Positions 364 through 39,977 of a stretch of DNA of 64,000 bases are shown one piece after another. The translations under genes and the position numbers were made by a program. Within the stretch, counting starts at the first letter, position 1. Each line of letters opens with the position of its first letter. Under the pieces are notes generated by a model. That model was given only the letters and a program-made list of their open reading frames with translations. It searched no databases and was not told the DNA's origin. The stretch spans positions 8,751 through 72,750 of the forward strand of contig MFVE01000008.1 in the NCBI GenBank assembly GCA_001785985.1, written 5' to 3'. This DNA comes from Candidatus Nomurabacteria bacterium RIFCSPLOWO2_01_FULL_42_17. Lineage in GTDB: Bacteria > Patescibacteriota > Minisyncoccia > Phycocordibacterales > UBA9973.

Positions 364-1707
364 TTATTTATCCCAATTGAAAAAGTGTTCTCGGTCTGGA
401 CCGGTGCCGACGGAGATGATTTTTACATTAAGGTCAGAAAGTTTATTTTTTATATATTTTAAATATCCAGAGAGTTCTTTGGAAACTTTCTTTTTCTCTC
501 TCACTCCATAATTAGCTTGACCCCAGCCCGGTATTTCTTCAGTGGTCACACTTGTCACCTCAGTTAAATAAAGCGGAAATTCTTTTAGAACTTTTTTATT
601 GTTTTTATATCCAGTGACCACTTTTATTTTATCACTCAGACAAATATCGGCCTTATTGATGAAAATTTTATTGGCGCCAGAGAGACCGATCGCATAACGG
701 AGGGCAAACAGATCCAACCAACCGCACATCCTCGGTCGTCCGGTGGTCGCTCCAAATTCATAGCCAGCATCTTGAAAAGCTTTCTCCAAAGCTTGATCTT
801 GTATTCTGGCTGGAAAGTTTCCACCGCCAACTTTAGTCGTATATGCTTTGATCACGCCATATATATCGCGCAAATATGTGTGAGGCACACCGAGACCGAG
901 GCAGACATTCGCAGGTAGGGTATTACTACTCGTAACATTTGGGTAATCTCCGAAATCCATATCCAGCATCACTGCCTGTGCGCCTTCTGCTAAAATATTT
1001 TTACCCTCGGACAACCTTTTTTGAATTAAAAATGACAAATCGCAAATCTGTAATTTTTTGAGCTCCCTCACAGCCTCGTCCCATTTTTCTTTCGCTTCTT
1101 TTATTTTTCCGAGCCTTTCCGCATTCATTTCAAAAGCATATTTTTCTTCATACATAGATAGAAAATTCGTATGAAATTCCGTCAGAGTTGCTTCTTTTTG
1201 GGCAAACTCTGGAGATAATATATCACCGATCAAGAGAGCTCTGCGAAATCTGACATCGCTATAAGCCGGGCCGATGCCCCTCGAAGTAGTGCCTATTTTC
1301 GTTCCTAATTTATTTCTGCGATATTCATCAGCTTGATCTAGAAAAGGATGCAAATGAGAGACCAGCTTTGCGCGATTGGAAATATAAAGACGTTTTTTAA
1401 TATCAAAACCTAAATTTTTAAGCTCGTTGATTTCTTTAATCAAAGATACAGCATCGACAACAACGCCATTGCCGATATACAGCTCGACATCTTTTTGCAG
1501 ACAGCCCGAAGGTATGATATGCCCTATAAAAGTCATATCTCCAAGTTTGAGAGTATGCCCGGCATTCGCTCCGCCCTGAAAACGCGCCACGCCGGAATAT
1601 TTTCCGTGAGACAAAAGTTCGTCTATGTTTTTTCCCTTACCTTCGTCGCCCCATTGTAGGCCGACAACCACATCAATAAATCCCTGTTTGTTTTTTAGTT
1701 TACTCAT
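364..1707 (-). CDS. purA: Adenylosuccinate synthetase
   Basis: 447 aa. N-terminal P-loop QWGDEGKGK, GHT motif, and full-length colinearity with the PurA family. Confidence 0.93.
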   Translation of the reverse strand: MSKLKNKQGFIDVVVGLQWGDEGKGKNIDELLSHGKYSGVARFQGGANAGHTLKLGDMTFIGHIIPSGCLQKDVELYIGNGVVVDAVSLIKEINELKNLGFDIKKRLYISNRAKLVSHLHPFLDQADEYRRNKLGTKIGTTSRGIGPAYSDVRFRRALLIGDILSPEFAQKEATLTEFHTNFLSMYEEKYAFEMNAERLGKIKEAKEKWDEAVRELKKLQICDLSFLIQKRLSEGKNILAEGAQAVMLDMDFGDYPNVTSSNTLPANVCLGLGVPHTYLRDIYGVIKAYTTKVGGGNFPARIQDQALEKAFQDAGYEFGATTGRPRMCGWLDLFALRYAIGLSGANKIFINKADICLSDKIKVVTGYKNNKKVLKEFPLYLTEVTSVTTEEIPGWGQANYGVREKKKVSKELSGYLKYIKNKLSDLNVKIISVGTGPDREHFFNWDK

Positions 1708-1721
1708 AATAAGTACGCGAA

Positions 1722-3212
1722 TTAATTCCCCAGACTGTAATTAGGAGGTTCTTTGGTAATTATAATATCGTGCGGATGACTTTCTTCCATGCCGGATTGC
1801 GTAATTCTGACAAATTTTGCTTTTTTCTGAAAAGTTTGAATATCTTTAGATCCGCAATATCCCATGCCCGCTCGAAGACCTCCGACCAGCTGATAGATCA
1901 CTTCAGAAAGTCCGCCTTTAAAAGCGACACGACCAACGATTCCTTCTGGAACAAGTTTCTTGATGTCATTTTCCATGTCTTGAAAATATCGGTCTTTAGA
2001 ACCTTGATTCATCGCCTCGACAGATCCCATCCCGCGATAAGTTTTATATTTTCTAGCATCTAAAATTATCGTTTCACCCGGCGATTCTTCCACTCCAGCA
2101 AAAAGACTCCCAGCCATGATAGAGCTCGCCCCTGCGGCGATAGCTTTACCGACGTCTCCCGTATATCTGATGCCTCCATCCGCGATCACAGGAACACCGG
2201 AGGCCTTAATCGCTTGCGCTACTTCATAGACAGCAGAAAATTGAGGAAAGCCTACTCCCGCGATCACCCGAGTAGTACAAATTGACCCTGGTCCAATGCC
2301 CACTTTTACCGCATCGGCTCCAGCGGCAACTAAATCTCGAGCTGCTTCCGCAGTAGCGATATTGCCGACGATAACTTCTAATTTTGGAAATTCTTTTTTT
2401 ATGTGGATTAACATTTCGATTACTCCCTTGGAATGTCCATGGGCAGTATCGATGACAATCACGTCGATGCCGTTTTGATCAAGCATTTTGACTCTCTCTA
2501 GGGTATCGGCAGTTATTCCGACCGCGGCGCCCACCCGCAGGCGCCCCAGGCTGTCTCGAGAAGATTTCGGCCGAGACTTTACCTTCATTATATCTTTGAA
2601 AGTAATCAAGCCGATAAGTTTATTTTGCTTGTCCACCAGCGGGAGTTTTTCCACTCTGTGCCTCATCAATATTTTTTCGGCCTCAAATAGATCTGTGCCG
2701 ATACTGCCGGTTATCAAATTTTTCTTGGTCATTATTTCTCCGACCGGCGTGCTCATTTTTTTCTGGAAACGCAGATCGCGATTGGTCAAAATACCCACGA
2801 GCTTCATGTCTTTATCGACGATCGGAATTCCGCCAATTTTATTTTCTTGCATTATTTTGATCGCTTCTTTTACCGATGCTTTTGGTGACAGAGTAATAGG
2901 GTCATGGATCATTCCGGACTCAGAGCGTTTTACTTTGCGTACTTGTTCTGCCTGCTGCGCAATGGTCATATTTTTATGCAAAATTCCGATACCGCCTTCT
3001 TGCGCCATCGCTATCGCCATGGCTGACTCGGTGACAGTGTCCATCGCGGCGGAGATGATCGGAACGCTGATTTTTATTTTTTTAGTTAGATGCGAGGTCG
3101 TATCGACATCTCGCGGCAAGACCTCAGAATATTGTGGCACCAACAAAACATCGTCGTACGTCAAGCCCTCTTGGAAATTCTCTCTGTCTTTCGTTTTTAC
3201 TTTGGAAGCCAT
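1722..3212 (-). CDS. guaB: IMP dehydrogenase (with CBS pair)
   Basis: 496 aa. Catalytic loop [11 protein letters not shown], an inserted CBS pair ([18 protein letters not shown]), and C-terminal GGIRYTGD. Confidence 0.93.
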
Positions 3213-3237
3213 AATATATCGTGTATACTAGCATATT

Positions 3238-4794
3238 ATGGCTGATATACAAATTCTGATCGTAGATTACGGATCGCAATATACTCTGGTTATCGGCAGA
3301 ACTCTGCGCGAACTTGGCGTGCGAAGTGTGATCTTGCCTCCCAAAAAAGTTGATCTGTGGCTGAAAAATAATCACCCGAAAGCCGTCATCCTTTCCGGAA
3401 GCAATTGGAGCGTACACAACGAGGGAGCGCCTGAGGTTCCAAAATCTCTAGATATTACGGGAAAAAAATATTTAATTTTAGGCGTATGTTATGGAATGCA
3501 ACTTCTTGCACACAAGCTCGGCGGCAAAGTCGAGCGGCCACTCTCGCATCGCGAATATGGGCCAGCAGAAGTGATACTGAATACATCACATCCGCTTTTT
3601 AGGGGCGTTAAAGAAAAAACAGATGTTTGGGCAAGTCACGGAGATACAGTTATAAAATTACCAAAGGGTTTTACTAGGGTAGCCACCTCGGCAGGTTGTG
3701 CGGCGATGAGCGATAAAAATAATCGTATCCTAGGAATCCAATTTCATCCGGAAGTCGCTCACACTAAAGAAGGTAAGAAAATATTGCAAAATTTTTTAAA
3801 TATTGCTAACTGCAAAAAAGATTGGAATCCAATTGATCTAATACATCAAATCCAAAACGAAGTCTTGGATATTGTAAATCCAGCAAAAAAACAAAAAGTA
3901 ATCTTGGGAGTTTCGGGCGGGGTAGACTCTACCACTCTCGCAGCCATTTTGGCGCCTGTTTTAAAAGAAAAACTTATCTGTATAGCAATAGATACTGGCG
4001 GACTGCGAGCAGATGAACTTTTTGAATTAAAAGCAAATACTGCGAGCGCTCTAGGAACAAATCAGGGAAAAAATTCTGCAAAAAACTTTGTGATCATAAA
4101 AGCTGGCGATGAATTTATAAAAAATATCAGCGCGACTATCGATGGAGAAGAAAAAAGGGGAAAATTCCGCGAAGTTTATAAAAGAATATTTGAAGAACAA
4201 ATAACAAAATACAGTGCTGGTTTTATTGTGCAAGGAACACTCGCCACCGACATCATCGAGAGCGGAAAAGCCGGGGAGTCGGCCATGATCAAGACGCATC
4301 ACAATGTGGGCCTTTCTTGGGAGGTAGATGATTTACATCCTTTTAGAAATTTATTCAAATACGAAGTCCGCGAACTCGCCCGGGTAATGAAACTCCCCAA
4401 GACGGTGTACGAGAGAAATCCTTTTCCTGGTCCCGGACTTTTCTTGAGAGTCGTTGGCACTCCGGTCACAGCCGAAAAAATAGAACTCGTGCGTGAAGCT
4501 GATAAAACTGTCGCGGGTATTCTAAAAAAACATAATTTAGAAAAAAATATTTCCCAAGTCATCGTCGCACTCCTAGGTATCAACTCTGTCGGAGTAAAAG
4601 GGGACGAAAGAGTTTACGGACATTCTCTAGCTGTCCGAGCTGTAGAGACAGTTGATTTCATGACAGCGAAAGGATTTTATTTTCCATCAGCCGTTGTGGA
4701 AGAGATAACTAGTGCGCTGACAAAACACAAAGACATCGTGCGTGTATTTTTCGATATGACTCCGAAACCCCCAGCCACCACGGAATTTGAGTAG
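3238..4794 (+). CDS. guaA: GMP synthase (glutamine-hydrolysing)
   Basis: 518 aa. N-terminal class I GATase (ILGVCYGMQLL, HPE), ATP-PPase SGGVDS motif and a C-terminal dimerisation domain. Confidence 0.93.
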   Translation: MADIQILIVDYGSQYTLVIGRTLRELGVRSVILPPKKVDLWLKNNHPKAVILSGSNWSVHNEGAPEVPKSLDITGKKYLILGVCYGMQLLAHKLGGKVERPLSHREYGPAEVILNTSHPLFRGVKEKTDVWASHGDTVIKLPKGFTRVATSAGCAAMSDKNNRILGIQFHPEVAHTKEGKKILQNFLNIANCKKDWNPIDLIHQIQNEVLDIVNPAKKQKVILGVSGGVDSTTLAAILAPVLKEKLICIAIDTGGLRADELFELKANTASALGTNQGKNSAKNFVIIKAGDEFIKNISATIDGEEKRGKFREVYKRIFEEQITKYSAGFIVQGTLATDIIESGKAGESAMIKTHHNVGLSWEVDDLHPFRNLFKYEVRELARVMKLPKTVYERNPFPGPGLFLRVVGTPVTAEKIELVREADKTVAGILKKHNLEKNISQVIVALLGINSVGVKGDERVYGHSLAVRAVETVDFMTAKGFYFPSAVVEEITSALTKHKDIVRVFFDMTPKPPATTEFE

Positions 4795-4832
4795 AGATAT
4801 TATTGTGTTAGTATTCGTGTATAGAAAAAATT

Positions 4833-6383
4833 ATGAAAAAGAAAATTAATTCGGCGCTGGTTTCAGTTTTCAATAAAGACGGACTTGAGGAAATAGTCAA
4901 ATTGCTGAATAAGCATGATGTAAAAATTATTTCTACGGGCGGGACTGCGGAATTTATTCGCCAATTAAAAACTCCAGCAAAGATTCCAGTGACGGAAGTG
5001 GAAACTATCACGAATTTTCCATCTGTTTTCGGCGGCAGGGTAAAAACTCTTCAACCGCAAATTTTTGGCGGTATTTTAAATCGTCGAGATAATGCTGATG
5101 ATCAAAAAGAAAAAACTAAACACAAAATCGAAGACATCGACTTGGTAATAGTCGATCTCTATCCATTCGAAGAAACGCTCGCGAGCGGCGCGCAAGAGAA
5201 AGAAATTATTGAAAAGATAGATATCGGGGGAATATCTCTCATCCGCGCCGCCGCCAAAAATTTCAATGACGTAGTTGTCATTCCCTCTAAACATCAATAC
5301 AAAGAGCTGGCGCAAATATTAGAACGTGGTAATGAGACCAGTTTAGAAGAACGAAAAAAATTCGCGGGTGATGCATTTGAAATTACGAGTAAGTATGACA
5401 GCGCAATCCGCGGATACTTTCAGGGTACGCCTCTGCGTTACGGCGAGAATCCCCACCAGAAAGCAGAATTTATCGGAAGTTTAGAAGAAAGCTTCACCCA
5501 GCTCCACGGCAAAGAACTTTCTTATAATAATCTCATAGACACCGAGGCGGCTATCATGGCTATCTACGATTTCAAAGATCCCGCTTTTGCCATCATCAAG
5601 CATATGAATGCCTGCGGACTGGCTGTGCGAAGCGAAGGAAACAAAGAGAGTTTGTTTGAAGCCTATGAAGCGGCCTATAATGCTGATCCGATTTCGGCTT
5701 TTGGCGGAATATTGGCGGCCAATAGGATGGTGGATGAAAATATCGCCGCGCTTATCAAAAAACAAAAACTTTTTATTGAAGTCATCATCGCTCCGGACTT
5801 TTCGGAAACTGCGCTGCAAATATTAAAAGAGAAAAAAGATTGCCGAATTTTAAAATGCCTGCCCGCCGATGCCTTCGGCCTCGAGCGATGGCAGGCGGGG
5901 AAAAATCCCATGTTCCCAAATAGACAGATTCGAAGTTGTTTCAATGGTTTACTTGTCCAAGACAGAGACAGCCATGTCGAAAGTGAAGCAGATTTAAAAA
6001 TTGTTACTAAACGCGCACCGACAGAAAAAGAAAAGGCTGATCTGCTCATCGCAGCGGTAGCGACTAAACATTTGAAATCCAATTCCGTAGCCCTAGTAAA
6101 GGGTGGCACGCTCATTGCCATGGGTTGTGGACAAACATCCCGCATCGACGCACTCAAGCAAGCGATCAACAAAGCCCAAAAGTTTGGTTTTTCTTTAAAG
6201 AACGCAGTGCTTTCTTCAGAAGCCTTTTTTCCATTTCCTGATTGCGTGGAACTAGCGGCCCAATCCGGCATCTCGGCCGTAATTCATCCCGGAGGTTCAA
6301 AGAATGATCAAGCGTCTATCGACATGGCGAATAAATACAATATGGCGATGGTCACAACTGGCTTTCGACATTTCAAACACTAA
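4833..6383 (+). CDS. purH: Bifunctional AICAR transformylase / IMP cyclohydrolase
   Basis: 516 aa. MGS-like N-terminal domain (ISTGGTAEFI) and an AICARFT C-terminal domain. Contains one copy of the 40-bp hairpin element at 5858-5900. Confidence 0.92.
   Translation: MKKKINSALVSVFNKDGLEEIVKLLNKHDVKIISTGGTAEFIRQLKTPAKIPVTEVETITNFPSVFGGRVKTLQPQIFGGILNRRDNADDQKEKTKHKIEDIDLVIVDLYPFEETLASGAQEKEIIEKIDIGGISLIRAAAKNFNDVVVIPSKHQYKELAQILERGNETSLEERKKFAGDAFEITSKYDSAIRGYFQGTPLRYGENPHQKAEFIGSLEESFTQLHGKELSYNNLIDTEAAIMAIYDFKDPAFAIIKHMNACGLAVRSEGNKESLFEAYEAAYNADPISAFGGILAANRMVDENIAALIKKQKLFIEVIIAPDFSETALQILKEKKDCRILKCLPADAFGLERWQAGKNPMFPNRQIRSCFNGLLVQDRDSHVESEADLKIVTKRAPTEKEKADLLIAAVATKHLKSNSVALVKGGTLIAMGCGQTSRIDALKQAINKAQKFGFSLKNAVLSSEAFFPFPDCVELAAQSGISAVIHPGGSKNDQASIDMANKYNMAMVTTGFRHFKH
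5858..5900 (+). repeat. Copy D of the ~40-bp GC-rich hairpin element (CCTGCCCGCC-[mini-hairpin GCCTTCGGC]-GGCAGGCGGGG). Sense orientation inside purH, encoding LPADAFGLERWQAG.
   Basis: Shares the CCTGCCCGC...GCAGGCGGGG termini with copies at 24754, 57916 and 62329. Locally about 70% GC against a genome background of about 35%. Confidence 0.6.
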
Positions 6384-6798
6384 TTTTAATTTAGATCGCT
6401 TAATTGCAAAAAATGATTTAAGTGATATTATTTGTATGGCTTCTGTTCTTTATGTAATTCTAAGAATGGAGGTCATAGACACCAAAACCAAGGAGAGAAA
6501 GGGAACGAAAAAATGGAGACTCAAGAAAACCAAAACTCGGAACCGACATCAGATTCGGTTCCATTGGTTCCAGCCCACGAGCTGGCAGATGGGGAAGTGT
6601 TGCTCAGAATGGCTCCTCCATCGGACTTCCAAATGCCTGTAGGCATTAAGTCGTTCGGAGGGGGATAGAAATCTCCAAAAGTAGATCAAAGGGGTCGACG
6701 GTTCACGCTGTCGACCTCCTTTTTATTTTATTTCATTTATTTTTGCCGAGTTGTTTTATATTTAAATAATGTTAAGATAATCTTAAGATAAAATTGCA

Positions 6799-7317
6799 AT
6801 GAAAAACCTAAAAATTGGAATAATTATGGGCTCAGATTCGGATCTAGAAGTAATGGCTGAAGCAGCGAAAGTGCTAGAAGAATTTAGCATACCTTACGAG
6901 ATTACTGTCGCTTCTGCGCACCGTTCACCAGAAATTGTACATAAATACGTGACTAGCGCCAAAGACAGAGGACTTAAGATCATCATCGCCGGCGCCGGCG
7001 GAGCGGCGCATCTGGCAGGCGTGGCTGCTTCGCTCACTACCTTGCCAGTAATCGGCATTCCAATGAAAGCAAAAAGTTTAGACGGGCTTGATTCGCTTTT
7101 ATCCACTGTCGGAATGCCCCCGGGAATACCTGTCGCCACTGTTGGAATAAATGCCGGGAAAAATGCGGGAATTTTAGCGGTACAAATACTAGCGACCTCT
7201 GGAAAAGATTTAGAAGATAGATTGATCGCCTACAAAGAGAAAATGAGCGGCGAAGTTGAAGCAAAAGGCAAAAAACTTTTGGAAATTGGATTTAAAAAAT
7301 ACTTGGAAAATAAATAG
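6799..7317 (+). CDS. purE: N5-carboxyaminoimidazole ribonucleotide mutase (PurE)
   Basis: 172 aa. GSDSD, SAHRSP and IAGAGGAAHL motifs. Confidence 0.92.
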   Translation: MKNLKIGIIMGSDSDLEVMAEAAKVLEEFSIPYEITVASAHRSPEIVHKYVTSAKDRGLKIIIAGAGGAAHLAGVAASLTTLPVIGIPMKAKSLDGLDSLLSTVGMPPGIPVATVGINAGKNAGILAVQILATSGKDLEDRLIAYKEKMSGEVEAKGKKLLEIGFKKYLENK

Positions 7318-7325
7318 GAATAAAA

Positions 7326-8339
7326 ATGACTAATCTTTACACAAAATCCGGCGTAAATATTAAAAAGGGCGGTGAAGTTGTGAAAAGAATAAAAAAAGAC
7401 GTCGCCTCCACACACACTCCGGCAGTGCTCCAAAATATTGGAGGATTTGGCGGGTTATACGCTCTCTCGGAAATAATAAAAAAATATAAAAATCCTGTTT
7501 TAGTCCAAAGTATCGATGGAGTAGGCACCAAGCTCTCGATAGCAAAAATGCTTAAAAAATATGATACCGTCGGACAAGATATTGTAAACCATTCTTGCAA
7601 TGACATCTTGGCGATGGGCGCTCGACCCCTGACCTTTCTAGATTATGTAGCCAACGAAACTCTGGTTTCAAAAGAAATGCAAGCGATAGTCAGCGGTATG
7701 GCAAAAGCTTGTAGAGAAGCAGGTGTGGCGCTCATCGGCGGTGAAACAGCCGAAATGCCCGGCGTATACATGAAAGGAGAACACGACATTGCTGGTTGTA
7801 TCACTGGAATCGTAGAAAAAGATAAAATCATTACCGGTGAAAAAATAAAAAAGGGCGATATAATTTTAGGTTTTCCTTCAAGTGGACTCCATACGAACGG
7901 TTTTTCTCTAGCGCGTAAACTGCTTTTAAATAAAATGACAAATAAATTGTCAGGTGAAATGATAGCGAAAACTCTGCTGAAAGTTCATATAAATTATTGC
8001 AAGCCCATTTTTTCACTTTTAGACAATGGTATTGATATAAAAGGCATTGCGCATATCACGGGCGGAGGATTTATTGAAAATATTCCGCGTATCTTACCGA
8101 AAAATCTGGATGCAGAAATTAAAAAAGGTTCTTGGCCGATGCTCCCTATCTTTCCCTATATGCAGAAAATTGGTAAAGTATCAGAGATGGAGATGTACAA
8201 GGTTTTCAATATGAGTATTGGATTAGTGATAGTAGTCAAAGAAGAAGAGAGAGAGAAAATTGAAAACATTTTAAAAAATCAAAATATTTTTTGGATTGGC
8301 AAAATTACTAAAGGAAAAGGAAAAACAAAATTAATATGA
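7326..8339 (+). CDS. purM: Phosphoribosylformylglycinamidine cyclo-ligase (AIR synthetase)
   Basis: 337 aa. PurM N- and C-terminal domains (DGVGTK, GGETAEMPGVY, HITGGG). Confidence 0.9.
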   Translation: MTNLYTKSGVNIKKGGEVVKRIKKDVASTHTPAVLQNIGGFGGLYALSEIIKKYKNPVLVQSIDGVGTKLSIAKMLKKYDTVGQDIVNHSCNDILAMGARPLTFLDYVANETLVSKEMQAIVSGMAKACREAGVALIGGETAEMPGVYMKGEHDIAGCITGIVEKDKIITGEKIKKGDIILGFPSSGLHTNGFSLARKLLLNKMTNKLSGEMIAKTLLKVHINYCKPIFSLLDNGIDIKGIAHITGGGFIENIPRILPKNLDAEIKKGSWPMLPIFPYMQKIGKVSEMEMYKVFNMSIGLVIVVKEEEREKIENILKNQNIFWIGKITKGKGKTKLI

Positions 8340-8341
8340 AT

Positions 8342-8402
8342 CCCGTTAGAAGTTGACTAATGGGAAGTTAAAAGATAAATTATAAATTTTAAAACTTCTA
8401 AC
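8342..8402 (+). promoter_or_regulatory. purM-purC intercistronic hairpin. A 13-bp perfect inverted repeat (CCCGTTAGAAGTT / AACTTCTAACGGG) ends 3 nt before the purC ATG.
   Basis: The inverted repeat was read directly. The 3' arm covers the expected RBS region of purC. Confidence 0.4.
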
Positions 8403-8405
8403 GGG

Positions 8406-9338
8406 ATGAATATCCTCAAAGAAACAAATTTTAAAAATCTAGGAGAAAAATACACTGGCAAAGTGCGAGATGTTTATAATCAAGACGATAAAGTTATTTT
8501 GATTTCAACCGACAGATATTCAGCTTTCGATCGTAATCTTGCGCTCATACCTTGTAAAGGCCAAGTGCTGACTCAAATCAGTAAATTTTGGTTCGAGCAG
8601 ACAAAAGATATTGTAAAAAATCATGCTCTGGATTTTCCTGATCCAAACGTAGTCGTAGGAGAGAAATGCACTGTGCTGCCGGTAGAAATGATCGTACGCG
8701 GATATATTACCGGCGTTACTTCGACCGCTCTTTGGGTAAATTATCAAAATGGGCAGAGGGATTTTGGAGATTTTGTTTTACCCGAGGGAATGAAAAAAAA
8801 TCAAAAGTTGGAGAAACCAGTAATTACTCCTACCACCAAATTTGAAGCGCACGACCGACCGCTCACCAGTAAAGTCATTTTGGATGAAAAAATGATAGCG
8901 CCAGAAATTTGGCAAAAAATTTGCGATATAGCTTTAAAACTTTTTACGCGCGGACAAGAGGTCGCGCTCGAAAAAGGATTGATATTGGTAGACACAAAAT
9001 ACGAATTTGGCCTCACAGCTGGTGGAGAAGTGATGCTCATAGACGAGATCCACACGCCAGATTCTTCCCGCTATTGGCAAGCCAATTCATATCAAAAAAG
9101 GATCGCCGAAGGCCTGGAACCAGAGAATTTCGACAAAGAATTTTTACGCTTGTGGTTCAAAGACAACTGCGATCCTTACAAGGACTCGGTGCTACCCGAA
9201 GCGCCAAAAGAAATGGTGCAGGAACTCTCGAGAAGATACATAAAAATATACGAACAAATCACCGGATTGCCTTTCAAGATTGAAGAGGGAAATATTGAGG
9301 AGAGAATAGAAAAAAATTTAGAAAAATATAAAATATAA
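8406..9338 (+). CDS. purC: SAICAR synthetase (long form)
   Basis: 310 aa with SAICAR_synt-family colinearity (GKVRDVY, STDRYSAFD, GLILVDTKYEFG). Confidence 0.9.
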   Translation: MNILKETNFKNLGEKYTGKVRDVYNQDDKVILISTDRYSAFDRNLALIPCKGQVLTQISKFWFEQTKDIVKNHALDFPDPNVVVGEKCTVLPVEMIVRGYITGVTSTALWVNYQNGQRDFGDFVLPEGMKKNQKLEKPVITPTTKFEAHDRPLTSKVILDEKMIAPEIWQKICDIALKLFTRGQEVALEKGLILVDTKYEFGLTAGGEVMLIDEIHTPDSSRYWQANSYQKRIAEGLEPENFDKEFLRLWFKDNCDPYKDSVLPEAPKEMVQELSRRYIKIYEQITGLPFKIEEGNIEERIEKNLEKYKI

Positions 9339-9342
9339 AATT

Positions 9343-10713
9343 ATGAAAAATGCGATCAACCCACTAGACGGAAGATATTTTGAAAAGACTCGCGCGCTGG
9401 CAGAGTATTTTTCTGAAGAAGCATTGATGAAATATCGAGTGATGATGGAATGTGAATATTTGATCAGTCTATCGGCTTTGAATAAAACAGCTTTAAGAAA
9501 ATTCACACCAGCTGAAATAAAAATCATTCGGAGTTTATACGAAAAATTTGACGACGCTTCTTATGAAGAAATAAAAAGGGGAGAAGCCATCACAAATCAT
9601 GACGTCAAAGCTGTGGAATATTTTTTGAAAGAAAAACTTGCAAAAACTTCTCTGAAAGACAGCATTGAATGGATTCATTTTGCGCTCACTTCCGAAGATA
9701 CAAATAATATAGCTTATGCACTCATTCTTTCTGATTCATTGGATCAGGTGATGAAGCCAGAAATTTCAAAAATAATCTCCGAGCTAGATAAACTTGCTAA
9801 AAAATATAAGAACTTGCCGATGCTCGCTCGCACTCATGGCCAATCCGCCAGCCCGACAACCTTCGGCAAAGAAATGAGGGTTTTTGTTGCTCGTTTAGAA
9901 AAGAGATTGGCAGGATTACAAAGTATAAAAATAGAAACAAAACTGAACGGAGCTACGGGAAATTACAATGCTCATATCACTGCTTACCCAGATGTAGATT
10001 GGCTAAAATTCACCAAAGATTTTATTCTTCAGCTTAATAAGTTACAAGCTACAAGTTACAAGCTACAAGCTAATTTAACAACTACCCAAATTGAGTGCCA
10101 TGATAGTTACGTAGCTGTTTTTGACACACTTAGGAGAATAAACACAATTCTTTTAGATTTTAATCAAGATATGTGGAGATATATTTCCGACGGCTGGGTG
10201 GGGCAGATACCGAAAGCAGGGGAGACGGGTTCGTCCACGATGCCACACAAAATAAATCCGATTGATTTTGAAAATAGCGAGGGAAATCTGGGCCTAGCAA
10301 ATGCCTTGTTTGAATTTTTTGCCCGCAAACTGCCGATCTCCCGACTGCAGCGCGATCTCTCAGATTCCACCGTCGAACGCGCTTTTGGCACTGCCTTTGG
10401 ACATTCATACTTAGCTTACGTCTCACTCTTGCAAGGCTTGAGTAAAATCAAAGTGAACGAAATAAAAATAAAAGAAGAATTAGTAGCGCATCCGGAAGTA
10501 GTAACCGAAGCCATTCAAACAATTTTGCGCCGTGAAGGAGAAAAAATGCCTTACGAACAGTTAAAAGAGCTGACTCGAGGCAAAGAGGTTACACTTTCTG
10601 ACATTCATGAATTCATCGATAACTTGAAAGTCAGCGAAAAAATAAAAAAAGAGTTGCTAAAAATCACGCCGGAAAATTACACCGGACTGGCTTCCAAACT
10701 GGCTTCAATGTAA
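9343..10713 (+). CDS. purB: Adenylosuccinate lyase
   Basis: 456 aa. Fumarate-lyase signature region (TGSSTMPHKINP) and the ADSL C-terminal domain. Contains a 7-bp tandem repeat (ACAAGCT x4) at 10044-10071. Confidence 0.92.
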   Translation: MKNAINPLDGRYFEKTRALAEYFSEEALMKYRVMMECEYLISLSALNKTALRKFTPAEIKIIRSLYEKFDDASYEEIKRGEAITNHDVKAVEYFLKEKLAKTSLKDSIEWIHFALTSEDTNNIAYALILSDSLDQVMKPEISKIISELDKLAKKYKNLPMLARTHGQSASPTTFGKEMRVFVARLEKRLAGLQSIKIETKLNGATGNYNAHITAYPDVDWLKFTKDFILQLNKLQATSYKLQANLTTTQIECHDSYVAVFDTLRRINTILLDFNQDMWRYISDGWVGQIPKAGETGSSTMPHKINPIDFENSEGNLGLANALFEFFARKLPISRLQRDLSDSTVERAFGTAFGHSYLAYVSLLQGLSKIKVNEIKIKEELVAHPEVVTEAIQTILRREGEKMPYEQLKELTRGKEVTLSDIHEFIDNLKVSEKIKKELLKITPENYTGLASKLASM

Positions 10714-22434: not shown

Positions 22435-23490
22435 TTATCTGCTTATAATTGCTAAAATTATACCGATAATGGCAAAGATGACGGAGATAATCCAAAAACG
22501 CATCGTAACCTTGTAAGAAGACCAGCCAATTGCTTCAAAATGGTGATGAAGCGGGGCAAGTTTGAACAATCTTTTTCCTCCTCTAAATTTTTTCGAGGCC
22601 ATCTGTAAAATAACCGAAGCAGATGTGAGAACTAGGGGCAAAGCGACAATGGGAAGAATAAAAACTGAATCAGTCAAAAATGCCAGCGTCGCGAGGGTAA
22701 TAGTGAGGCCCATGATGCCCGTCTCTCCCATAAAAAATCTAGCCGGAGGAATGTTGAACCACAGAAATGCCAAGATCGCCCCGGTAATAACGGCTGAAAA
22801 TGCGGCGATATCGATCTGATTGTTGGCATAAGCTATCGCCGAGTAAGCGGCAAAAATAGATGCTAAAACCCCTCCAGAAAGTCCATCGATCCCATCTATC
22901 ACTCCCCCGGAAAAAGTAGCCAAGGCGACGATGATAAAAAATGGAACAATTAAAATGCCTAAATAGATTTCTCCAAAAAAAGGAATATGCAGCGAGGTTA
23001 TGCCTAATTTATAAAAAAACCACATTCCTATCATAAGAGACATAAAGGTAATGAGAAAGACTTTCCATTTGCGCCAAGATTTATCGTCCCGAGCAAACCT
23101 GCCGCTGCCATAAATCTGAATCAAGTCGTCCCAAAGCCCGATCAATGACCCTATCAAAAGCGTAAAAATAGGTATGAGGGTTTGATTGCGGCTCAAGAAA
23201 TTTATTTCAGAACTATAGCTGGAAGGAAAGAAAATTGAGGCTAAATAAAAAATAAGCGTGGTCGTCAAGACAGAAATCCAGATGATCACCCCGCCCACTC
23301 TGGGTGTGCGGAGTTCCTCCTTCTCTTTATTAATCTTTTGAAAATCTGAAGTGGTTCCGTTAGCGCTCCTAGAATACCTCTTCCACATTTTATATTTGTA
23401 AAAAAAATGAGTCGCGATTGGAGTAAAAAAAAGCCCGAAAAAAAATGCAACCGCTGTCGGCAAAAATATTTTGATTAAGCTGAAATACAT
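22435..23490 (-). CDS. mraY: Phospho-N-acetylmuramoyl-pentapeptide transferase
   Basis: 351 aa polytopic membrane protein. LRTPRVGG, NAIDGIDGL and PLHHHFE motifs of MraY/GT4. Confidence 0.85.
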   Translation of the reverse strand: MYFSLIKIFLPTAVAFFFGLFFTPIATHFFYKYKMWKRYSRSANGTTSDFQKINKEKEELRTPRVGGVIIWISVLTTTLIFYLASIFFPSSYSSEINFLSRNQTLIPIFTLLIGSLIGLWDDLIQIYGSGRFARDDKSWRKWKVFLITFMSLMIGMWFFYKLGITSLHIPFFGEIYLGILIVPFFIIVALATFSGGVIDGIDGLSGGVLASIFAAYSAIAYANNQIDIAAFSAVITGAILAFLWFNIPPARFFMGETGIMGLTITLATLAFLTDSVFILPIVALPLVLTSASVILQMASKKFRGGKRLFKLAPLHHHFEAIGWSSYKVTMRFWIISVIFAIIGIILAIISR

Positions 23491-24969: not shown

Positions 24970-25719
24970 TTAATTTGCAATTTGCTCCTGCTTATTAAAT
25001 ATAATATCCCCCTTATCGCCTTCTTGGACCGCATCGATAATTCCTTGCCTCACAAGCTCTAATAAAGCCAAAAATCCGACTATCGCAACCACTTTTTCCT
25101 CCCGAGTCGTTATTTTGCCGTGCAAATCTTTAAAATTCATTTTCAGAGAATTTTGTATTCTTTCGGTAAGCCGATCGATCATCTCTTCAATACTGATGAC
25201 TTTGCGCACTTCCACCTCCGGCAAAAATACTTTCTTTGGCATTGAGCCTAGGACATTTTGAGCAAAACCCATCATGCTTTCTTTTGTAATTTGCGCATCC
25301 GGCAAAAATACTAGAACATCACTCTTTCTTTCAAGTGGCGCAAAAATTATGTTTTTACCAAAATTGTTTTTGATATTTCCTCCAAGTTTTGTAAAAAGTT
25401 CGTACAATCGCAATCTCTCCTCCAGATTTTTTATATCACCTTCTTCCTCCAACGTCAGATTCAGATTAGGCAAAAGTGATTTTGATTTGATCAAAATAAG
25501 GGTTGAGGCCACTAAAATAAAACTAGCGATTTGGGCAGAAGAAATCGAACCAGAAGCGCCAAGTTTGTTCATGTAACTCAAATAATCTTCCGTCACTGCC
25601 GAGAGCGAAACATCGTTTATGAAGAATTTGCGTTTTTCTATCAATTCCAAAAGCAAACCAAACGGTCCTTCAAAATTTGCCATTTTTATTGTATATGCGT
25701 GCTCCCTTTGGGTTTCCAC
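24970..25719 (-). CDS. scpA: Segregation and condensation protein A (kleisin)
   Basis: 249 aa. ScpA N-terminal (LIEKRKFFINDVSL) and C-terminal winged-helix regions. Immediately upstream of scpB. Confidence 0.85.
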   Translation of the reverse strand: METQREHAYTIKMANFEGPFGLLLELIEKRKFFINDVSLSAVTEDYLSYMNKLGASGSISSAQIASFILVASTLILIKSKSLLPNLNLTLEEEGDIKNLEERLRLYELFTKLGGNIKNNFGKNIIFAPLERKSDVLVFLPDAQITKESMMGFAQNVLGSMPKKVFLPEVEVRKVISIEEMIDRLTERIQNSLKMNFKDLHGKITTREEKVVAIVGFLALLELVRQGIIDAVQEGDKGDIIFNKQEQIAN

Positions 25720-25741: not shown

Positions 25742-28249
25742 ATGCAAAAGAAAAATACTGCGAGAAATTTCACCCGCCACAAAGGAGGGGTCCGCCTATC
25801 AAAAAATGTCATACCAATAGAATACGACATACAACTAAAACCAGATTTAGACAACTTTACTTTTTGGGGTATGGAAGTCATAACGCTTTTCATATTAAAA
25901 CCGACCAAAATATTAACTCTGCATTCTAAAGAGCTCGAAATTGAAACAGTTAGGATTGCAGATGTATATGCCAAAATTTCTTATGATGAAAAAAAGGAAA
26001 CAGCAACTTTTTTATTTCCCAAAAATATTTTAGCCGGCAAAAATAAATTAATAATAGTTTTCAAAGGAATATTGAATGATAAAATGCGCGGATTTTATCG
26101 CAGCCGTTATACTACCGGTGGCAAAGAATACCACATGGCGACAACCCAGTTTGAAGCTACAGATGCGCGCAGAGCATTTCCTTGTTTTGATGAACCAGCG
26201 CAAAAAGCTGTCTTCTATGTATCGCTCATCGTCCCACTCGGCAAGACCGCGATTTCCAATACGCTTCCCGTTTCCGTAGCAGAACATGAGGCGGGCTATC
26301 AAATAGTAAAGTTCTCGCCGACACCCAAAATGTCCACATATCTGCTCGCATTTATCGTCGGAGATTTTGAGTATATAGAATCCAAAACCAAGAATAACGT
26401 ACAAGTGCGGGTCTTTACTACTCCCGGCAAAAAACATCAAGCCGAGTTTGCTCTCGACTGCGCGGTAAAAACTTTAGAATTTTACGAAAAATATTTTGCT
26501 ATTGCTTATCCTCTTCCTGTCTTAGACATGATCGCTATTCCGGATTTTACATCCGGAGCAATGGAAAATTGGGGCGCGATCACTTATCGCGAGTCCGCTC
26601 TTTTGGTTGATGAAGAGCATTCCTCACTTTCGAATAAACAATGGGTAGCGCTGGTCATTGCCCACGAGATAGCGCATCAATGGTTCGGCAATCTAGTGAC
26701 AATGGAATGGTGGACTCATTTATGGCTCAATGAGGGTTTTGCTTCATATATAGAATATCTCGCAATAGACAAACTCTTCCCGCATTGGGATATTTGGACG
26801 CAATTTTCGAACAATGAGCTGGGCACAGCGCTTAGACTCGACGCCCTACTTCATACTCATCCGATCGAAATACCCGTGCATCACCCGGATGAAATCGGCG
26901 AGATATTCGATGAGGTGTCTTATTCCAAAGGCGCATCGATCATCCGAATGCTCGCGGATTATTTGGGTGAAAAAGATTTCAGAGACGGCCTCCGGCATTA
27001 CCTAAAAAAACATAGTTATAAAAATACTGAGACATTCCACCTCTGGGAATCATTTGAGAAGATTTCTAAAAAACCTGTCGCCAAAATGATGCATAATTGG
27101 ACTTCCGAGCCTGGATATCCAGTAGTAAAAGCTCAAATGATAAAGGGAAAAATAAATTTCTCTCAAAGTAGATTCTTCGCGAGCCCGATATCAGCAAAAA
27201 AAGTAAAAGGTAAAACAAAATGGGAAATCCCGATAAATTTCAAAAAAAATAAGGTAAATTTTGGTGAAGCAGGATTCTTTAGGACTGCATATTCTCCTGA
27301 ACTTCTCGAAAAATTAAAAATCCCGGTTGAAAAAAAACTTTTGTCCGCTCGCGATAGACTCGGCATCATCCGAGATCTATTTGCTCTCGCCGAAGCGGGC
27401 ACGATACCGACTACAGATGCACTAGAATTTTTGTCCGCATACAAAAAAGAAGACAATTATACCGTTTGGCTTGAAATTGCAATGGGTCTAGGGAGGTTAG
27501 AACAACTTTTGGCTAAGACCGACCTAAAAGCAAGACTAGACGGGCTGGTTTTCTCCCTATTCTCCCCTCTTGCCAAAAAATTGGGTTGGAAAAAGAAAAG
27601 AAACGAAGCTCACACTGATGCGCTCTTGCGTTCCCTGGCTATCTCTCGCGCCGGACGCGCCGGACGTTCGAGTGATGAAAAAATAATAAACGAAGCGAGA
27701 AAAAAATTTATTTTAATGCAAAAGGGCAAACATGTGCATCCCGATCTGCGCGGAGCTATTTATTCCATTATCGCAAAATGGGGAGGAAAATCAGAATACG
27801 ATCTTTTTATTAAAAAATATAAAAAAGAAACACTACATGAAGAAAAAAATAGAATCGGTAACGCTCTAGGAGATTTTCGTGATCCAAAATTATTAAAGCT
27901 TGCATGCGAATTTGCATTTTCGAATAATGTCCGAATGCAAGACACCATCGGCATCCTTTCTTCTGTAGGAGGAAATCCACTGGGACGAGATATCTGGCTC
28001 AATTTTATCCAGAAGAATTGGAAAACATTAGTCTCGCGTTACGGCGACGGCGGGCATACCCTCGCTCGACTGGTCAAAGCCATTTCCGGAAGCGCCGAAG
28101 AAAAGCATTTGAAAGCTTTTAAAAAATTCTTTGCCACGCACGACGCTCCGGGCGCGCAGCGCGCGATAGAGCAAGTCAAAGAGCGCTTAGAGGGCAATAT
28201 CGCATGGCTGAAACGAGATCATGAGAAAATCAATAATTTCTTGCTATAA
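25742..28249 (+). CDS. pepN: M1-family aminopeptidase N
   Basis: 835 aa. GAMEN, HEIAHQWFGNLVT-x18-E zincin motif, and an ERAP1-like C-terminal domain. Confidence 0.9.
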   Translation: MQKKNTARNFTRHKGGVRLSKNVIPIEYDIQLKPDLDNFTFWGMEVITLFILKPTKILTLHSKELEIETVRIADVYAKISYDEKKETATFLFPKNILAGKNKLIIVFKGILNDKMRGFYRSRYTTGGKEYHMATTQFEATDARRAFPCFDEPAQKAVFYVSLIVPLGKTAISNTLPVSVAEHEAGYQIVKFSPTPKMSTYLLAFIVGDFEYIESKTKNNVQVRVFTTPGKKHQAEFALDCAVKTLEFYEKYFAIAYPLPVLDMIAIPDFTSGAMENWGAITYRESALLVDEEHSSLSNKQWVALVIAHEIAHQWFGNLVTMEWWTHLWLNEGFASYIEYLAIDKLFPHWDIWTQFSNNELGTALRLDALLHTHPIEIPVHHPDEIGEIFDEVSYSKGASIIRMLADYLGEKDFRDGLRHYLKKHSYKNTETFHLWESFEKISKKPVAKMMHNWTSEPGYPVVKAQMIKGKINFSQSRFFASPISAKKVKGKTKWEIPINFKKNKVNFGEAGFFRTAYSPELLEKLKIPVEKKLLSARDRLGIIRDLFALAEAGTIPTTDALEFLSAYKKEDNYTVWLEIAMGLGRLEQLLAKTDLKARLDGLVFSLFSPLAKKLGWKKKRNEAHTDALLRSLAISRAGRAGRSSDEKIINEARKKFILMQKGKHVHPDLRGAIYSIIAKWGGKSEYDLFIKKYKKETLHEEKNRIGNALGDFRDPKLLKLACEFAFSNNVRMQDTIGILSSVGGNPLGRDIWLNFIQKNWKTLVSRYGDGGHTLARLVKAISGSAEEKHLKAFKKFFATHDAPGAQRAIEQVKERLEGNIAWLKRDHEKINNFLL

Positions 28250-36397: not shown

Positions 36398-36437
36398 GAC
36401 AAAAACATTTTAACATAAATTAAAAAAGAAAAATAGG

Positions 36438-36490
36438 CTAAATAAAAATAAAAACCAGCAATATTTTCCTCCTTTCGAGTATTGCTGGTT
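36438..36490 (-). terminator. Bidirectional intrinsic terminator. Stem ACCAGCAATA / TATTGCTGGT, with T-runs on both strands.
   Basis: 10-bp perfect stem at 36454-36463 and 36480-36489. The minus strand is followed by TTTTTATTTTTATTT. Lies downstream of the 36521-36736 gene. Confidence 0.6.
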
Positions 36491-36520
36491 TTTGAAATGT
36501 TGATTTTTCAACAGACCCGA

Positions 36521-36736
36521 TCACCATCCCCATCCTACAGGCCTCCCTTCACGTCCCACCATGAGACCACGTATTTCACCACAATGGGCACATTTGAAAC
36601 AATCAGTCCGACCATTAGGGTTAAGAAGAGGGTCTAGATCTACTTGCACAATTTTCACTACATTTTGGCAGGTAATACACCATGCCCTTTTTGGAGGATT
36701 ATAGTCTCCACTTTGTTCATCTGAAGCACCCCACAT
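36521..36736 (-). CDS. Hypothetical small zinc-ribbon protein (CITC...CAHC), in a GC-richer segment
   Basis: 71 aa with two CxxC pairs. Local GC is above background. No recognisable family. Confidence 0.35.
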   Translation of the reverse strand: MWGASDEQSGDYNPPKRAWCITCQNVVKIVQVDLDPLLNPNGRTDCFKCAHCGEIRGLMVGREGRPVGWGW

Positions 36737-37086
36737 ATATAACCTTTCTTTTTACTATATTTTGAAATCACTTACATGGGTGGATTCCTGCACCTGAGAA
36801 TTTAAAGTTTTCACAAACTTTTTTTATTATCAAAGAACAAAAAGTGACGCTCATGCGCCACTTAATGGATTCCCTGTTTTAAATAGTTTAAAAAGAAATC
36901 AACAGAGTAGCGCAAAAGCAAATGCCTTTCCGCCCCACCAAGATTTCATTAATTTATTTATTTTAAATTGATTTTTCATATTTGTCTTCGTGCATCCTCC
37001 TATCCATGCACTAGTGCATGGTAGCATACTATAAAAAGTCTGCAACTACTAAAAATTACAGACTGTGGATAACTCTCCACTAAAGT

Positions 37087-37383
37087 TTATTTGCCTAATT
37101 TTTTCAAAACTAGATTGAAGCCGCCATTTTTATTGCGGAGCATGCGAGACCCACGGGTCACAGTGCTCATTCCAAGACCTAAATCCCCCACTACAGACCT
37201 GTGTGTTTCTCCTTTATTTAATTTTTTAACTATTTGCCAACGCAAAGACAGGGCTTCAAATTCATTAGGAGTAAGTATGTCTTTTAAAAATAAAGCCACT
37301 AATTCTTTACTACTATTAATTTTAGAAAAAATCTCCACCAGTTCCTGCTTGTATTCTGGAATTTTTTTACTGATGTGCTTCAT
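37087..37383 (-). CDS. TrpR-family (YerC/YecD-like) helix-turn-helix protein
   Basis: 98 aa. TPNEFEALSLRWQIVKKL...GMSTVTRGSR matches the Trp_repressor family HTH. Confidence 0.7.
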   Translation of the reverse strand: MKHISKKIPEYKQELVEIFSKINSSKELVALFLKDILTPNEFEALSLRWQIVKKLNKGETHRSVVGDLGLGMSTVTRGSRMLRNKNGGFNLVLKKLGK

Positions 37384-38558: not shown

Positions 38559-39977
38559 ATGGAAAAATCGGCTACTAAAGCAGTAAAAAACATCAGACCA
38601 AAAAATTTGCGCATTCCACCTCAGAGCATCGAATCAGAAATGGCAGTCTTGGGTTCTATCATGCTCCGCAAAGACGCCATGCACGAAGTAGAAGACATGA
38701 TCAGCCCAGAATCTTTTTATGTAGAAAAACATAAAATGATTTTTCAGGCCATGCTTGATCTGTCGAACAAGAACGAGCCGATAGATATGCTCTCGCTCTC
38801 GACAAAGCTCGGAGAACAAAAATTGCTCGATAATGTGGGCGGAAATGTTTATCTGGCCGAAATAGTCAACGTCGTCCCCTCCTCTACCAACGTCAAACAC
38901 TATGCCGATATCGTACAAAAAAAATATGTCCTGCGAAGTCTGATCGAAGCCGCCGACTATGTGTCGGAGCTCGCCTTTGAAGAAGGAGACGACCGCATGG
39001 ACGATATCTTGGACATGGCGGAAAAGAAAATTTTTAGCGTCGTCTCCAGCCCAAAAAATCAAAAATTCGTAAACCTAAAAGATGCGCTACCGGAAGCTTA
39101 TGAACGATTAGAAAAATTACATGAACACAAGGGCATGCTGCGCGGACTGCCGACTGGTTTTAAAGATTTAGATAACATATTATCCGGCCTACAAAAGTCT
39201 GATCTAGTGATTCTCGCCGCGCGGCCGAGTATGGGTAAGACTACTCTGGCACTAGACATCGCACGCATGACTTCTACGACTCACGAAAAATCCGTGGTGA
39301 TATTTTCTCTGGAAATGTCCTCCCAACAATTAGTGGACAGAATGCTCTCGGCCGAGAGTCGAGTAAATGCGTGGAACTTGCGTACAGGACGAATATCAGA
39401 TGAAAAAGGAGACTTTATTAAGCTTCAACATTCACTTGATAAACTCGCCAAAGCTAAAATTTATATTGACGACCAGCCAGGAAATTCAATAGTTCGAATG
39501 AAGGCTCTTTCGCGCCGATTGAAAGCAGAAAAAGGGCTTGACCTCATCGTCGTAGACTATCTGCAACTCATGTCTACTTCAAAAAATTATGATTCAATGG
39601 TGAATCAAGTGACAGAAATCAGTAGATCGTTGAAAGGCTTGGCAAAAGAACTCGACGTGCCGGTTCTCGCACTCTCCCAGCTTTCTCGTGCGGTGGAATC
39701 TCGCGGTGGTAAACCTCGCCTTTCTGATCTTCGTGATTCGGGATCTATTGAGCAAGACGCAGATGTCGTAATGTTCCTACATCGAGATGATAAAGGAAAA
39801 GACGAATCAGAAAAAACAAATATCGTTGAAATTTTGATTGAAAAACACCGAAATGGCCCGATTGGGAAAATAGAACTCTATTTCGATGAAAAAACCACTA
39901 CCTTCCAAAGCCTAGAAAAGAGCAGCCTAAGTGAATTCGCTCCGTCAAAGGTAAAGGGAGATTTGGATGCGTTTTAA
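38559..39977 (+). CDS. dnaB: Replicative DNA helicase
   Basis: 472 aa. DnaB N-terminal domain, Walker A (ARPSMGKTT), and RecA-like C-terminal motifs. Confidence 0.92.
   Translation: MEKSATKAVKNIRPKNLRIPPQSIESEMAVLGSIMLRKDAMHEVEDMISPESFYVEKHKMIFQAMLDLSNKNEPIDMLSLSTKLGEQKLLDNVGGNVYLAEIVNVVPSSTNVKHYADIVQKKYVLRSLIEAADYVSELAFEEGDDRMDDILDMAEKKIFSVVSSPKNQKFVNLKDALPEAYERLEKLHEHKGMLRGLPTGFKDLDNILSGLQKSDLVILAARPSMGKTTLALDIARMTSTTHEKSVVIFSLEMSSQQLVDRMLSAESRVNAWNLRTGRISDEKGDFIKLQHSLDKLAKAKIYIDDQPGNSIVRMKALSRRLKAEKGLDLIVVDYLQLMSTSKNYDSMVNQVTEISRSLKGLAKELDVPVLALSQLSRAVESRGGKPRLSDLRDSGSIEQDADVVMFLHRDDKGKDESEKTNIVEILIEKHRNGPIGKIELYFDEKTTTFQSLEKSSLSEFAPSKVKGDLDAF

Follow-up and report, generated by a model that had tools for sequence, protein, structure and literature searches.

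The 415-bp spacer between purH and purE in the analyzed window (64,000 nucleotides from a metagenome-assembled genome of Candidatus Nomurabacteria, CPR/Patescibacteria) is probably an autonomous orphan small-gene cassette, inserted between purH and the promoter of purE, and not the riboswitch or attenuator of purine genes suggested by the original prediction. According to this reading, which is built on sequence comparison, a sigma-70-type extended -10 promoter (6404-6431) would start a transcript of ~290 nt at ~6438. The initial 14 nt of this RNA, GGCUUCUGUUCUUU, which are rich in pyrimidines and resemble an anti-SD, would pair with a purine-rich segment to form a 5'-terminal stem-loop, which probably stabilizes the mRNA and, in some relatives, would occlude the ribosome-binding site. 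A purine-rich leader would then precede the ATG at 6513, from which 51 codons would be translated into an acidic, proline-rich, largely disordered protein whose motif PLVxA[H/E]ELxDG may, by conjecture, mediate binding to a partner protein. A terminator (6688-6735) would end both the cassette transcript and any read-through from guaA-purH, and would shield the (near-)leaderless purEMCB promoter (6751-6789), plausibly as an insulator.

The genes surrounding the spacer are those of a purine cluster:

3238-4794: guaA, Pfam-confirmed, preceding purH
4833-6383, + strand: purH, the 5' flank, encoding AICAR formyltransferase/IMP cyclohydrolase (Pfam AICARFT_IMPCHas, E=2.8e-97, plus an MGS domain), with its stop codon TAA at 6381-6383
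6799-7317, + strand: purE, the 3' flank, encoding AIR carboxylase (Pfam AIRC, E=7.6e-63) and heading purE-purM-purC-purB

The three genes following purE (purM, purC, and purB) were likewise recognized with Pfam, and the best reference PurE (75% identity) belongs to a Nomurabacteria MAG. The spacer had been singled out as unusually long, and it does occupy 6384-6798 (415 bp), ranking fourth-longest in the window among the gaps separating ORFs of at least 90 aa; inter-ORF gaps in the window are mostly 4-76 bp, and ordinary small genes (rpsM, rpmJ) lie in one or more of the three gaps that exceed the spacer. The GC-richer core noticed at the outset is equally real, with values of 0.49-0.53 at 6500-6700 compared with 0.39 for the window and 0.24-0.30 for the flanks. 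An assembly artefact is excluded because the spacer is base-for-base the same in an independent assembly from a different sample. In GenBank, the spacer ORF is annotated in a form of 78 aa (OGI94993.1, "hypothetical protein A2917_01260"). From purH to purE, the spacer contains the following features:

6404-6431, + strand: cassette promoter, from a promoter scan (-35 TTGCAA at 6404-6409, N16, extended -10 TGaTATTAT at 6423-6431)
6435-6477, + strand: 5'-terminal stem-loop of the predicted transcript, from folding, with 16 pairs (5' arm containing GGCTTCTGTTCTTT at 6438-6451, 3' arm AAGAATGGAGGTC)
6481-6504, + strand: CA-rich, purine-rich leader, from reading of the sequence, with the SD-like AAGGAGAGAAAGGGA
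6513-6668, + strand: 51-codon ORF, METQENQNSEPTSDSVPLVPAHELADGEVLLRMAPPSDFQMPVGIKSFGGG, with core PLVPAHELADG, second motif PSDFQMP, and C-terminus FGGG
6539-6562, + strand: perfect 8-bp hairpin inside the ORF, GGAACCGA-N8-TCGGTTCC, of uncertain significance
6688-6735, + strand: intrinsic terminator, stem AAAGGGGTCGACGG/CTGTCGACCTCCTT with 12 pairs at 6691-6718, then the T-tract CTTTTTATTT
6751-6789, + strand: purE promoter (-35 TTGTTT at 6751-6756, extended -10 TGtTAAGAT at 6770-6778, duplicated -10 TAAGAT at 6784-6789)

The junction was compared with that of relatives whose PurH is 79-82% identical (11 related Nomurabacteria loci), on contigs that keep the order guaB, then guaA-purH-purE-purM-purC. 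The MAG of the window derives from Rifle aquifer samples, and the L092 population from Hainich groundwater (wells H51 and H52). Most relatives found through PurE (70-78% identity), as well as the closest reference genome (L002), have the arrangement purD-purE and were left out, since a purE that follows purD and not purH is not comparable. Contigs of the same strain (L082, L083, and L180-189) carry an identical unit and are therefore uninformative on covariation. Across the comparison set, the distance between purH and purE is extremely variable, from 20 to 1696 bp (20 bp in L172, 34 bp in L170, 112 bp in L166, 158 bp in L177, 415 bp in the window, 422 bp in L174-176, 476 bp in L171, 851 bp in L092, 1041 bp in L084, 1173 bp in L190, 1388 bp in L164, and 1696 bp in L165). 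The spacers of L170 and L172 are essentially the purE promoter alone, and the cassette is absent from these two loci as well as from L166 and L177, all of which retain the purE promoter. On this comparative evidence the spacer is dispensable, as the shortest junctions hold little beyond that promoter. In three further loci (L084, L164, and L165), unrelated ORFs occupy the place of the cassette; L084 carries three of them behind the same promoter and leader, and has in common with the window only this 5' promoter/leader and the 3' end. The ORFs of the long spacers in relatives have no match in Pfam or PHROGs, save one STAS-domain ORF in L164, and homology (E=3e-17) links the orphan ORF of L165 (222 aa) with that of L190 (175 aa). 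The spacers of L084, L092, and L165 are also GC-richer than their own surrounding locus. In the preferred cassette model, the purH-purE junction is taken as a hotspot at which genomes of this clade carry accessory orphan ORFs.

The part of the junction that does not vary is the purE promoter. An alignment of the sequences upstream of purE from 11 loci shows TTGTTT/TTGTAT-N16-TGnTAAGAT common to all, with T-G-n-T-A-A-n-A-T invariant in 11/11. In the window this promoter lies downstream of the terminator, 6-20 nt ahead of the purE ATG (6799), and the gap between its end and the ATG is 4-9 nt in eight relatives; in L166 and L190 it is located further upstream and is followed by a structured leader. 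No SD precedes purE. Elsewhere in the window, a TGnTAnnnT ending ~6 nt before the start codon is found at 8 of 36 other genes, compared with a background of 1.1%, and SD-like motifs are found at 8 of 37 genes. Since the layout recurs at this many genes, (near-)leaderless expression looks normal for this genome, and the genome-wide character of the leaderless pattern in turn supports the purE promoter as real. From its conservation together with this pattern, we infer that purE has a dedicated, nearly leaderless promoter in this Nomurabacteria lineage.

The position of this promoter bears directly on the original prediction of a terminator-type riboswitch or attenuator controlling purEMCB. The terminator shape on which that claim was founded is confirmed, ~64 nt before the purE ATG, and an element of this kind would sit where a cis-regulatory purEMCB leader is to be sought: within a purine gene cluster, with a terminator-shaped hairpin 64 nt 5' of purE, and with a short ORF that ends 20 nt before the terminator and has three Gly codons last, glycine being a purine precursor. 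Such a leader could be a riboswitch, or a leader-peptide attenuator in which purines or charged tRNA gate read-through at 6691-6718. Either form is, however, very improbable. In 11/11 loci the stretch separating the terminator from purE contains the conserved purE promoter, without an SD, and a terminator upstream of that promoter cannot gate purE; the promoter sits so near the ATG that there is no room for a riboswitch ahead of the gene, and any read-through RNA would be poorly translated because purE has no SD. The element is missing in the four loci that lack the cassette, with the purE promoter the same, and in two of these (L172 and L170) purE follows purH by 20-34 bp; in three others unrelated ORFs stand in its place, and the Gly run occurs in only 2 of 4 ORF homologues (the window and L092, not L175 or L190).

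The searches for known RNA families point the same way. A cmscan of the whole 64-kb window against Rfam 15 gave 0 matches at the gathering score, and relaxing the threshold to E<=10 for 6300-6900 (600 nt) yielded noise in the form of weak, unrelated sRNA models (the best at 23.8 bits versus a gathering score of 59), with no match to the purine, ZTP, ykkC/PRPP, 2'-dG, NMT1/xanthine, or other families. The homologous units of L092 and L084 gave 0 matches at E<=1. The alignment of relatives that had been proposed as a check for covariation was likewise negative: in RNAalifold, the structure common to three homologous units consists of small pieces or the 5' hairpin plus the terminator, none of it inside the ORF, and the covariation term (+1.35) is unfavorable. 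An equivalent GC-rich hairpin and T-run adjoins the purE promoter on its upstream side in L092, L175, L171, and L084, and the terminator probably serves the cassette as well as read-through from purH.

Of the two hairpins originally reported, the perfect 8-bp hairpin is present as described, although its coordinates are 6539-6562, one base lower than first given. A perfect hairpin of that size arises in 2-6% of mononucleotide shuffles, and L092 and L175 lack it at the corresponding position. A terminator-like site was also seen on the minus strand at 6563-6538. An antisense RNA ending at 6563-6538 was considered and rejected, as the scan returned no minus-strand promoter, and a type I toxin-antitoxin arrangement was rejected because the peptide is acidic and without a hydrophobic stretch and no minus-strand promoter matches the site at 6563-6538.

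The 5' part of the cassette begins shortly past the purH stop codon with a promoter that is separate from that of purE. Equivalent -35 and -10 boxes are found in L092, L175, and L171, where they lie 6-7 nt before the 14-mer segment, as in the window; in L084 these boxes recur, with 21 nt separating them from the variant of the motif found there. Transcription of the cassette would start at ~6437-6439. The window, L092, and L174-176 have the 14-mer GGCTTCTGTTCTTT in identical form, and variants of it occur in L084 (TTTTGTTCGTTCTTTGA) and L171 (GGTTCATTGTTCTT). The 3' arms vary in sequence and in distance and yet pair with it (AAGAATGGAGGTC in the window, AACAGGAGCT in L092, GAACTGAAG in L175), and the mRNA is read, on the basis of predicted folds, as opening with a stem-loop formed by the 14-mer and its partner arm. 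Both L092 and L175 show an overlap between the 3' arm and the likely ribosome-binding site of their ORF, with no such overlap in the window, where the GGAGG is sequestered 40 nt upstream of the start codon and thus would not be a functional ribosome-binding site. The strict invariance of the 5' arm exceeds what a purely structural role explains. Beyond the stem-loop, the leader of the window aligns with AACCAAAACCGAGAGGAGAAA of L084, which stands immediately 5' of an ATG. A regulon sharing the leader motif was rejected, as GTTCWTTGAA shows no enrichment across the window (15 occurrences versus 19.5 expected), and a near-match at 36829-36842 proved to be the T-tract of a terminator; the resemblance of the leader motif to the B. 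subtilis PurBox is one that we take to be weak.

The strength of folding and the constancy of the leader raise the question of whether the conserved product is RNA. A noncoding or dual-function sRNA, in which a structured transcript of ~290 nt is the active species and the ORF is incidental or secondary, would fit the strong folding of the window unit (6432-6735, z=-4.74 versus shuffles) and of the L092 unit (z=-7.47), as well as the invariant 14-mer at the predicted 5' end, which is far better conserved than the ORF. The window, L092, and L084 all contain an 11-nt segment, AAAACCAAAAC, in reading frames that differ or within the UTR; because its placement is not constant, its retention goes beyond coding constraint, and it too would suit an sRNA. 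So would a stem that connects the codons for PPSD with those for FGGG, which is retained in L092 with changes that preserve pairing. Such an RNA is nonetheless unlikely. It has no Rfam match, the L175 unit shows no unusual degree of structure (z=-1.47), and most of the folding energy of the window unit resides in the 5' hairpin and the terminator, with the RNAalifold term and the small extent of common structure both speaking against a shared fold. The amino acids of the ORF are kept through synonymous codon changes, and L190 has the ORF core behind another promoter and leader, without the 14-mer.

The interpretation of the spacer as a small protein-coding gene draws on the ORF itself. The small ORF had been offered as a fallback to the riboswitch, and it is this part of the original prediction that holds up: the 51-codon ORF exists and ends at 6668, with its ATG at 6513 and not at 6514, and it is conserved as protein in three other lineages (L175, L190, and L092), in which homologues are found at the same junction and codon changes at conserved residues are mostly synonymous. 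The four sequences, which are the only ones from which the family is known, compare as follows:

Window, 51 aa: ...VPLVPAHELADGEV...PPSDFQMP...SFGGG
L175, 60 aa: ...AHLVAAHELGDGDH...FPSDYKWPE
L190, 33 aa: ...SPPLVAAEELIDG, stopping right after the core motif
L092, 50 aa: ...TAREFEDL...DAFGGG

The shared motif is PLVxA[H/E]ELxDG. Within its 11-codon core, synonymous and non-synonymous changes stand at 6:3 between the window and L175, 8:3 between the window and L190, and 4:3 between L175 and L190, and the nucleotide differences by codon position (2/2/6 and 5/1/10) are biased towards the third. The same synonymous, third-position pattern is seen in the PSD[F/Y]xxP motif, and the four differences between the window and L092 in the FGGG-stop segment all fall in third positions. 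The proteins of the window and L175 are significantly similar (BLASTP E=4e-4; shuffle p=0.0015), and the comparison of the window with L092 over the whole length is not significant (p=0.13). The GC content of the ORF is 0.52 compared with 0.39 for the window. Taken together, the codon-level comparisons support ORF 6513-6668 as protein-coding. That L190 keeps the core of the peptide behind a different, near-leaderless promoter, without the 14-mer, argues that the protein rather than the RNA is the conserved payload. Translation of an ORF with a leader is an assumption, since SD-led translation is unusual in this genome (8/37 genes). The annotated 78-aa form, starting from a TTG at 6432, is probably over-extended, a start that precedes the proposed transcription start being doubtful, and an alternative basic ORF of 58 aa in frame +1 (6466-6642) was set aside because tblastx indicates that it is unconserved in relatives.

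The protein would have a pI of 4.1, with 12% proline, 8 acidic and 2 basic residues, and no hydrophobic stretch, and its tryptic digestion would give the peptide METQENQNSEPTSDSVPLVPAHELADGEVLLR. AlphaFold2 returned a model with a pLDDT of 61 and a single short helix (residues 21-26, AHELAD), the rest being unstructured, so that the protein is predicted to be mostly disordered; this confidence is too low to make structural comparison of the fold worthwhile. A word-indexed search of 5.8 billion clustered proteins with the 51-aa query recovered only the query itself, and a three-member profile recovered only its three members. Full HMMER against 1.84 billion representative proteins returned the same three members and one PKD-repeat protein, which was rejected as a homologue because it is a chance match through a WEFGDG motif. 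There was no match to the protein in Pfam, NCBIfam, PHROGs, PDB, or IMG/VR. As far as these searches reach, the family is confined to a few closely related ultra-small (CPR) bacteria.

A narrow distribution of this kind could also mark a decaying remnant of a larger accessory island, in which the ORF no longer functions. The inserts of 0.85-1.7 kb at the same junction in relatives, the restriction of the L084 match to the two ends of the unit, the truncation of the L190 copy to 33 aa, and the lack of a homologue outside the small clade are all in keeping with decay. This explanation is quite improbable, however, as each element of the unit (promoter, hairpin, start codon, reading frame, and terminator) is intact, and the core motif bears a signature of purifying selection in three lineages whose PurH is only ~80% identical. 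A broader alternative, in which purH-purE and also guaA-purH form a conserved expression slot with a promoter, the invariant leader GGCTTCTGTTCTTT and its hairpin, and a terminator, and in which unrelated GC-richer orphan ORFs are born or exchanged, is also rather unlikely. Viewed from such a slot, the ORFs of the window, L092, and L175 make up one peptide family, and those of L190, L165, and L164 are other orphans.

With the orphan small-gene cassette as the preferred reading, a false riboswitch candidate is removed from this locus. What takes its place is new: a clade-restricted small acidic protein that has a linear motif kept among its homologues and whose 5' leader is unusually conserved, earlier known only as a hypothetical protein. 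At this junction, the difference in orphan-gene content between closely related ultra-small genomes ranges from 0 to 1.7 kb, and if the orphans are expressed, the junction would offer a compact natural system for following the origin of accessory or new genes in streamlined CPR genomes. The slot reading, if true, would make it a natural hotspot where genes are born or cassettes exchanged in ultra-reduced genomes, the invariant leader being the regulatory handle that they share.

Among known systems, purine riboswitches and leaders (RF00167, ZTP RF01750, ykkC/PRPP-type RF00442, and the B. subtilis pur leader) resemble the cassette in their location 5' of purine genes and in their combination of hairpins and a terminator, but the cassette has no covariance-model match, is dispensable, and has its terminator upstream of the purE promoter. 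The trp, his, and pyrBI attenuators share with it an ORF that ends ~20 nt before an intrinsic terminator. Unlike these, the cassette has a promoter intervening before purE and an ORF that is replaced or absent in relatives, and its 51 codons are long for a leader peptide, with a conserved internal motif and no regulatory codon run. The leaders of ompA and aprE are 5'-terminal stem-loops that stabilize mRNA or leaders that sequester the SD; the hairpin of the cassette similarly begins a few nucleotides from the predicted 5' end, with a pyrimidine-rich arm pairing with an SD-like arm. It differs in that the GGAGG sequestered in the window lies far from the start codon, in that the 5' end of the cassette is a predicted one, and in that the constancy of the 5' arm goes past a structural role. 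A length of ~50 aa, an acidic composition, predicted disorder, and the FGGG end in the window and L092 recall Pup and other ubiquitin-like tags, a candidate that was rejected because the C-termini differ (FGGG, FGGG, KWPE, and ELIDG) and no family match was obtained.

The closest counterparts may be the phage morons, known from lambdoid phage genomics as autonomous promoter-ORF-terminator units between genes that are adjacent in related genomes. The cassette differs from them in its location on the chromosome of a CPR bacterium; searches gave it no relatives among phages or PHROGs, nothing links it to phages, and neither mobility genes nor target-site duplications were seen at it. The likeness extends to most of the anatomy: the cassette stands between purH and purE, genes separated by 20-34 bp in L172 and L170; it comes with a promoter and an intrinsic terminator of its own, positionally conserved in homologous units and presumably functional; its composition deviates from that of its surroundings (52% versus 39% GC); and its cargo is an accessory orphan.

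In the window, the -10 region of the purE promoter is present as a tandem duplicate (TAAGATAATCT / TAAGATAAAAT, 6773-6794), so that purE is preceded by both a TG-extended -10 box, 20 nt from its ATG, and a plain -10 box at a distance of 9 nt. The relatives carry this region as a single copy. A 16-bp long-range helix (UGUCCCGUUAGAGAUU ... AUCUCUAACGGGAUG) that separates the promoter of purE from its ATG was found on several related contigs and is absent from the window:

L190, 5025-5150: helix-bearing purE leader
L166, 4578-4645 (also L167-L169): helix-bearing purE leader

In these contigs the helix is predicted to bury the purE start codon. Its pairing is kept despite sequence differences between the L190 and L166 lineages, and folding of the helix segments gives z-scores of -4.25 and -3.51. 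An Rfam scan, which covered L190 only, returned no match for the helix. The helix may represent a real cis-regulatory purE leader, or it may be a MITE-like inverted repeat.

The purH|purE junction is also a hotspot for orphan ORFs, and its cargo in the relatives includes a second orphan protein family and a STAS-domain ORF:

L165, 5401-6069: orphan protein, 222 aa
L190, 4144-4671: orphan protein of the same family, 175 aa
L164, 4721-5008: STAS-domain ORF, 95 aa, anti-sigma-antagonist type (E=2.7e-5)

The two orphan proteins are related (BLASTP E=3e-17) and have the motifs HLxRLWQK and P.F.AWIR in common; Pfam and PHROG searches with the 222-aa protein gave no match. Downstream of the STAS ORF lie two small ORFs, both of which encode a hydrophobic stretch at the N-terminus. 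The small-gene units (promoter, leader, one or more ORFs and terminator) of the window and two relatives contain an identical 11-mer, AAAACCAAAAC:

Window, 6526-6536
L092, 2080-2090
L084, 2045-2055

The 11-mer is read in different frames in the window versus L092, and lies in the 5' UTR in L084. Read on the minus strand, the window's copy supplies a U-tract behind the 8-bp hairpin (6539-6562), and the two together make a terminator-like site. Between an 83-aa orphan ORF and its small-gene unit, L092 additionally carries a very GC-rich, strongly self-complementary segment (1710-1835, GGGGTCCCCCCTCCTGCGCCCGCGCGCGG...) that ends in an intrinsic terminator and had no match in an Rfam scan.

The guaA|purH junction, 38 bp long in the window, is enlarged in relatives by up to ~1.3 kb:

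L190, 1537-2500: enlarged junction, with a promoter followed by a leader containing TGTTCTTTAA
L174-176, 1230-2500: enlarged junction, with a Bac_transf gene
L180, 339-907: enlarged junction

The inserts contain small ORFs without Pfam matches. The longest gap in the window (36398-37090) likewise holds a stand-alone small ORF:

36521-36736, minus strand: 71 aa, with its own terminator hairpin downstream

The two Cys pairs in this ORF (CxxC and CxxxxC) are zinc-ribbon-like.

Across the window, an extended -10 box (TGnTAnnnT) ends ~6 nt 5' of the start codon in 8 of 36 genes (background 1.1%), for example:

22435-23490, minus strand
24970-25719, minus strand
25742-28249, plus strand
38559-39977, plus strand

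Motifs resembling a Shine-Dalgarno sequence precede only 8 of 37 genes, and this Nomurabacteria genome seems to make wide use of leaderless mRNAs.

The purine genes themselves form a compact cluster, which is present on dozens of related contigs:

Window, 364-10713: minus-strand purA and guaB, followed by guaA-purH-purE-purM-purC-purB

The usual description of CPR bacteria, the group to which this genome belongs, is that they are incapable of nucleotide synthesis, as in the abstract of one preprint (bioRxiv 10.64898/2026.07.13.738296).
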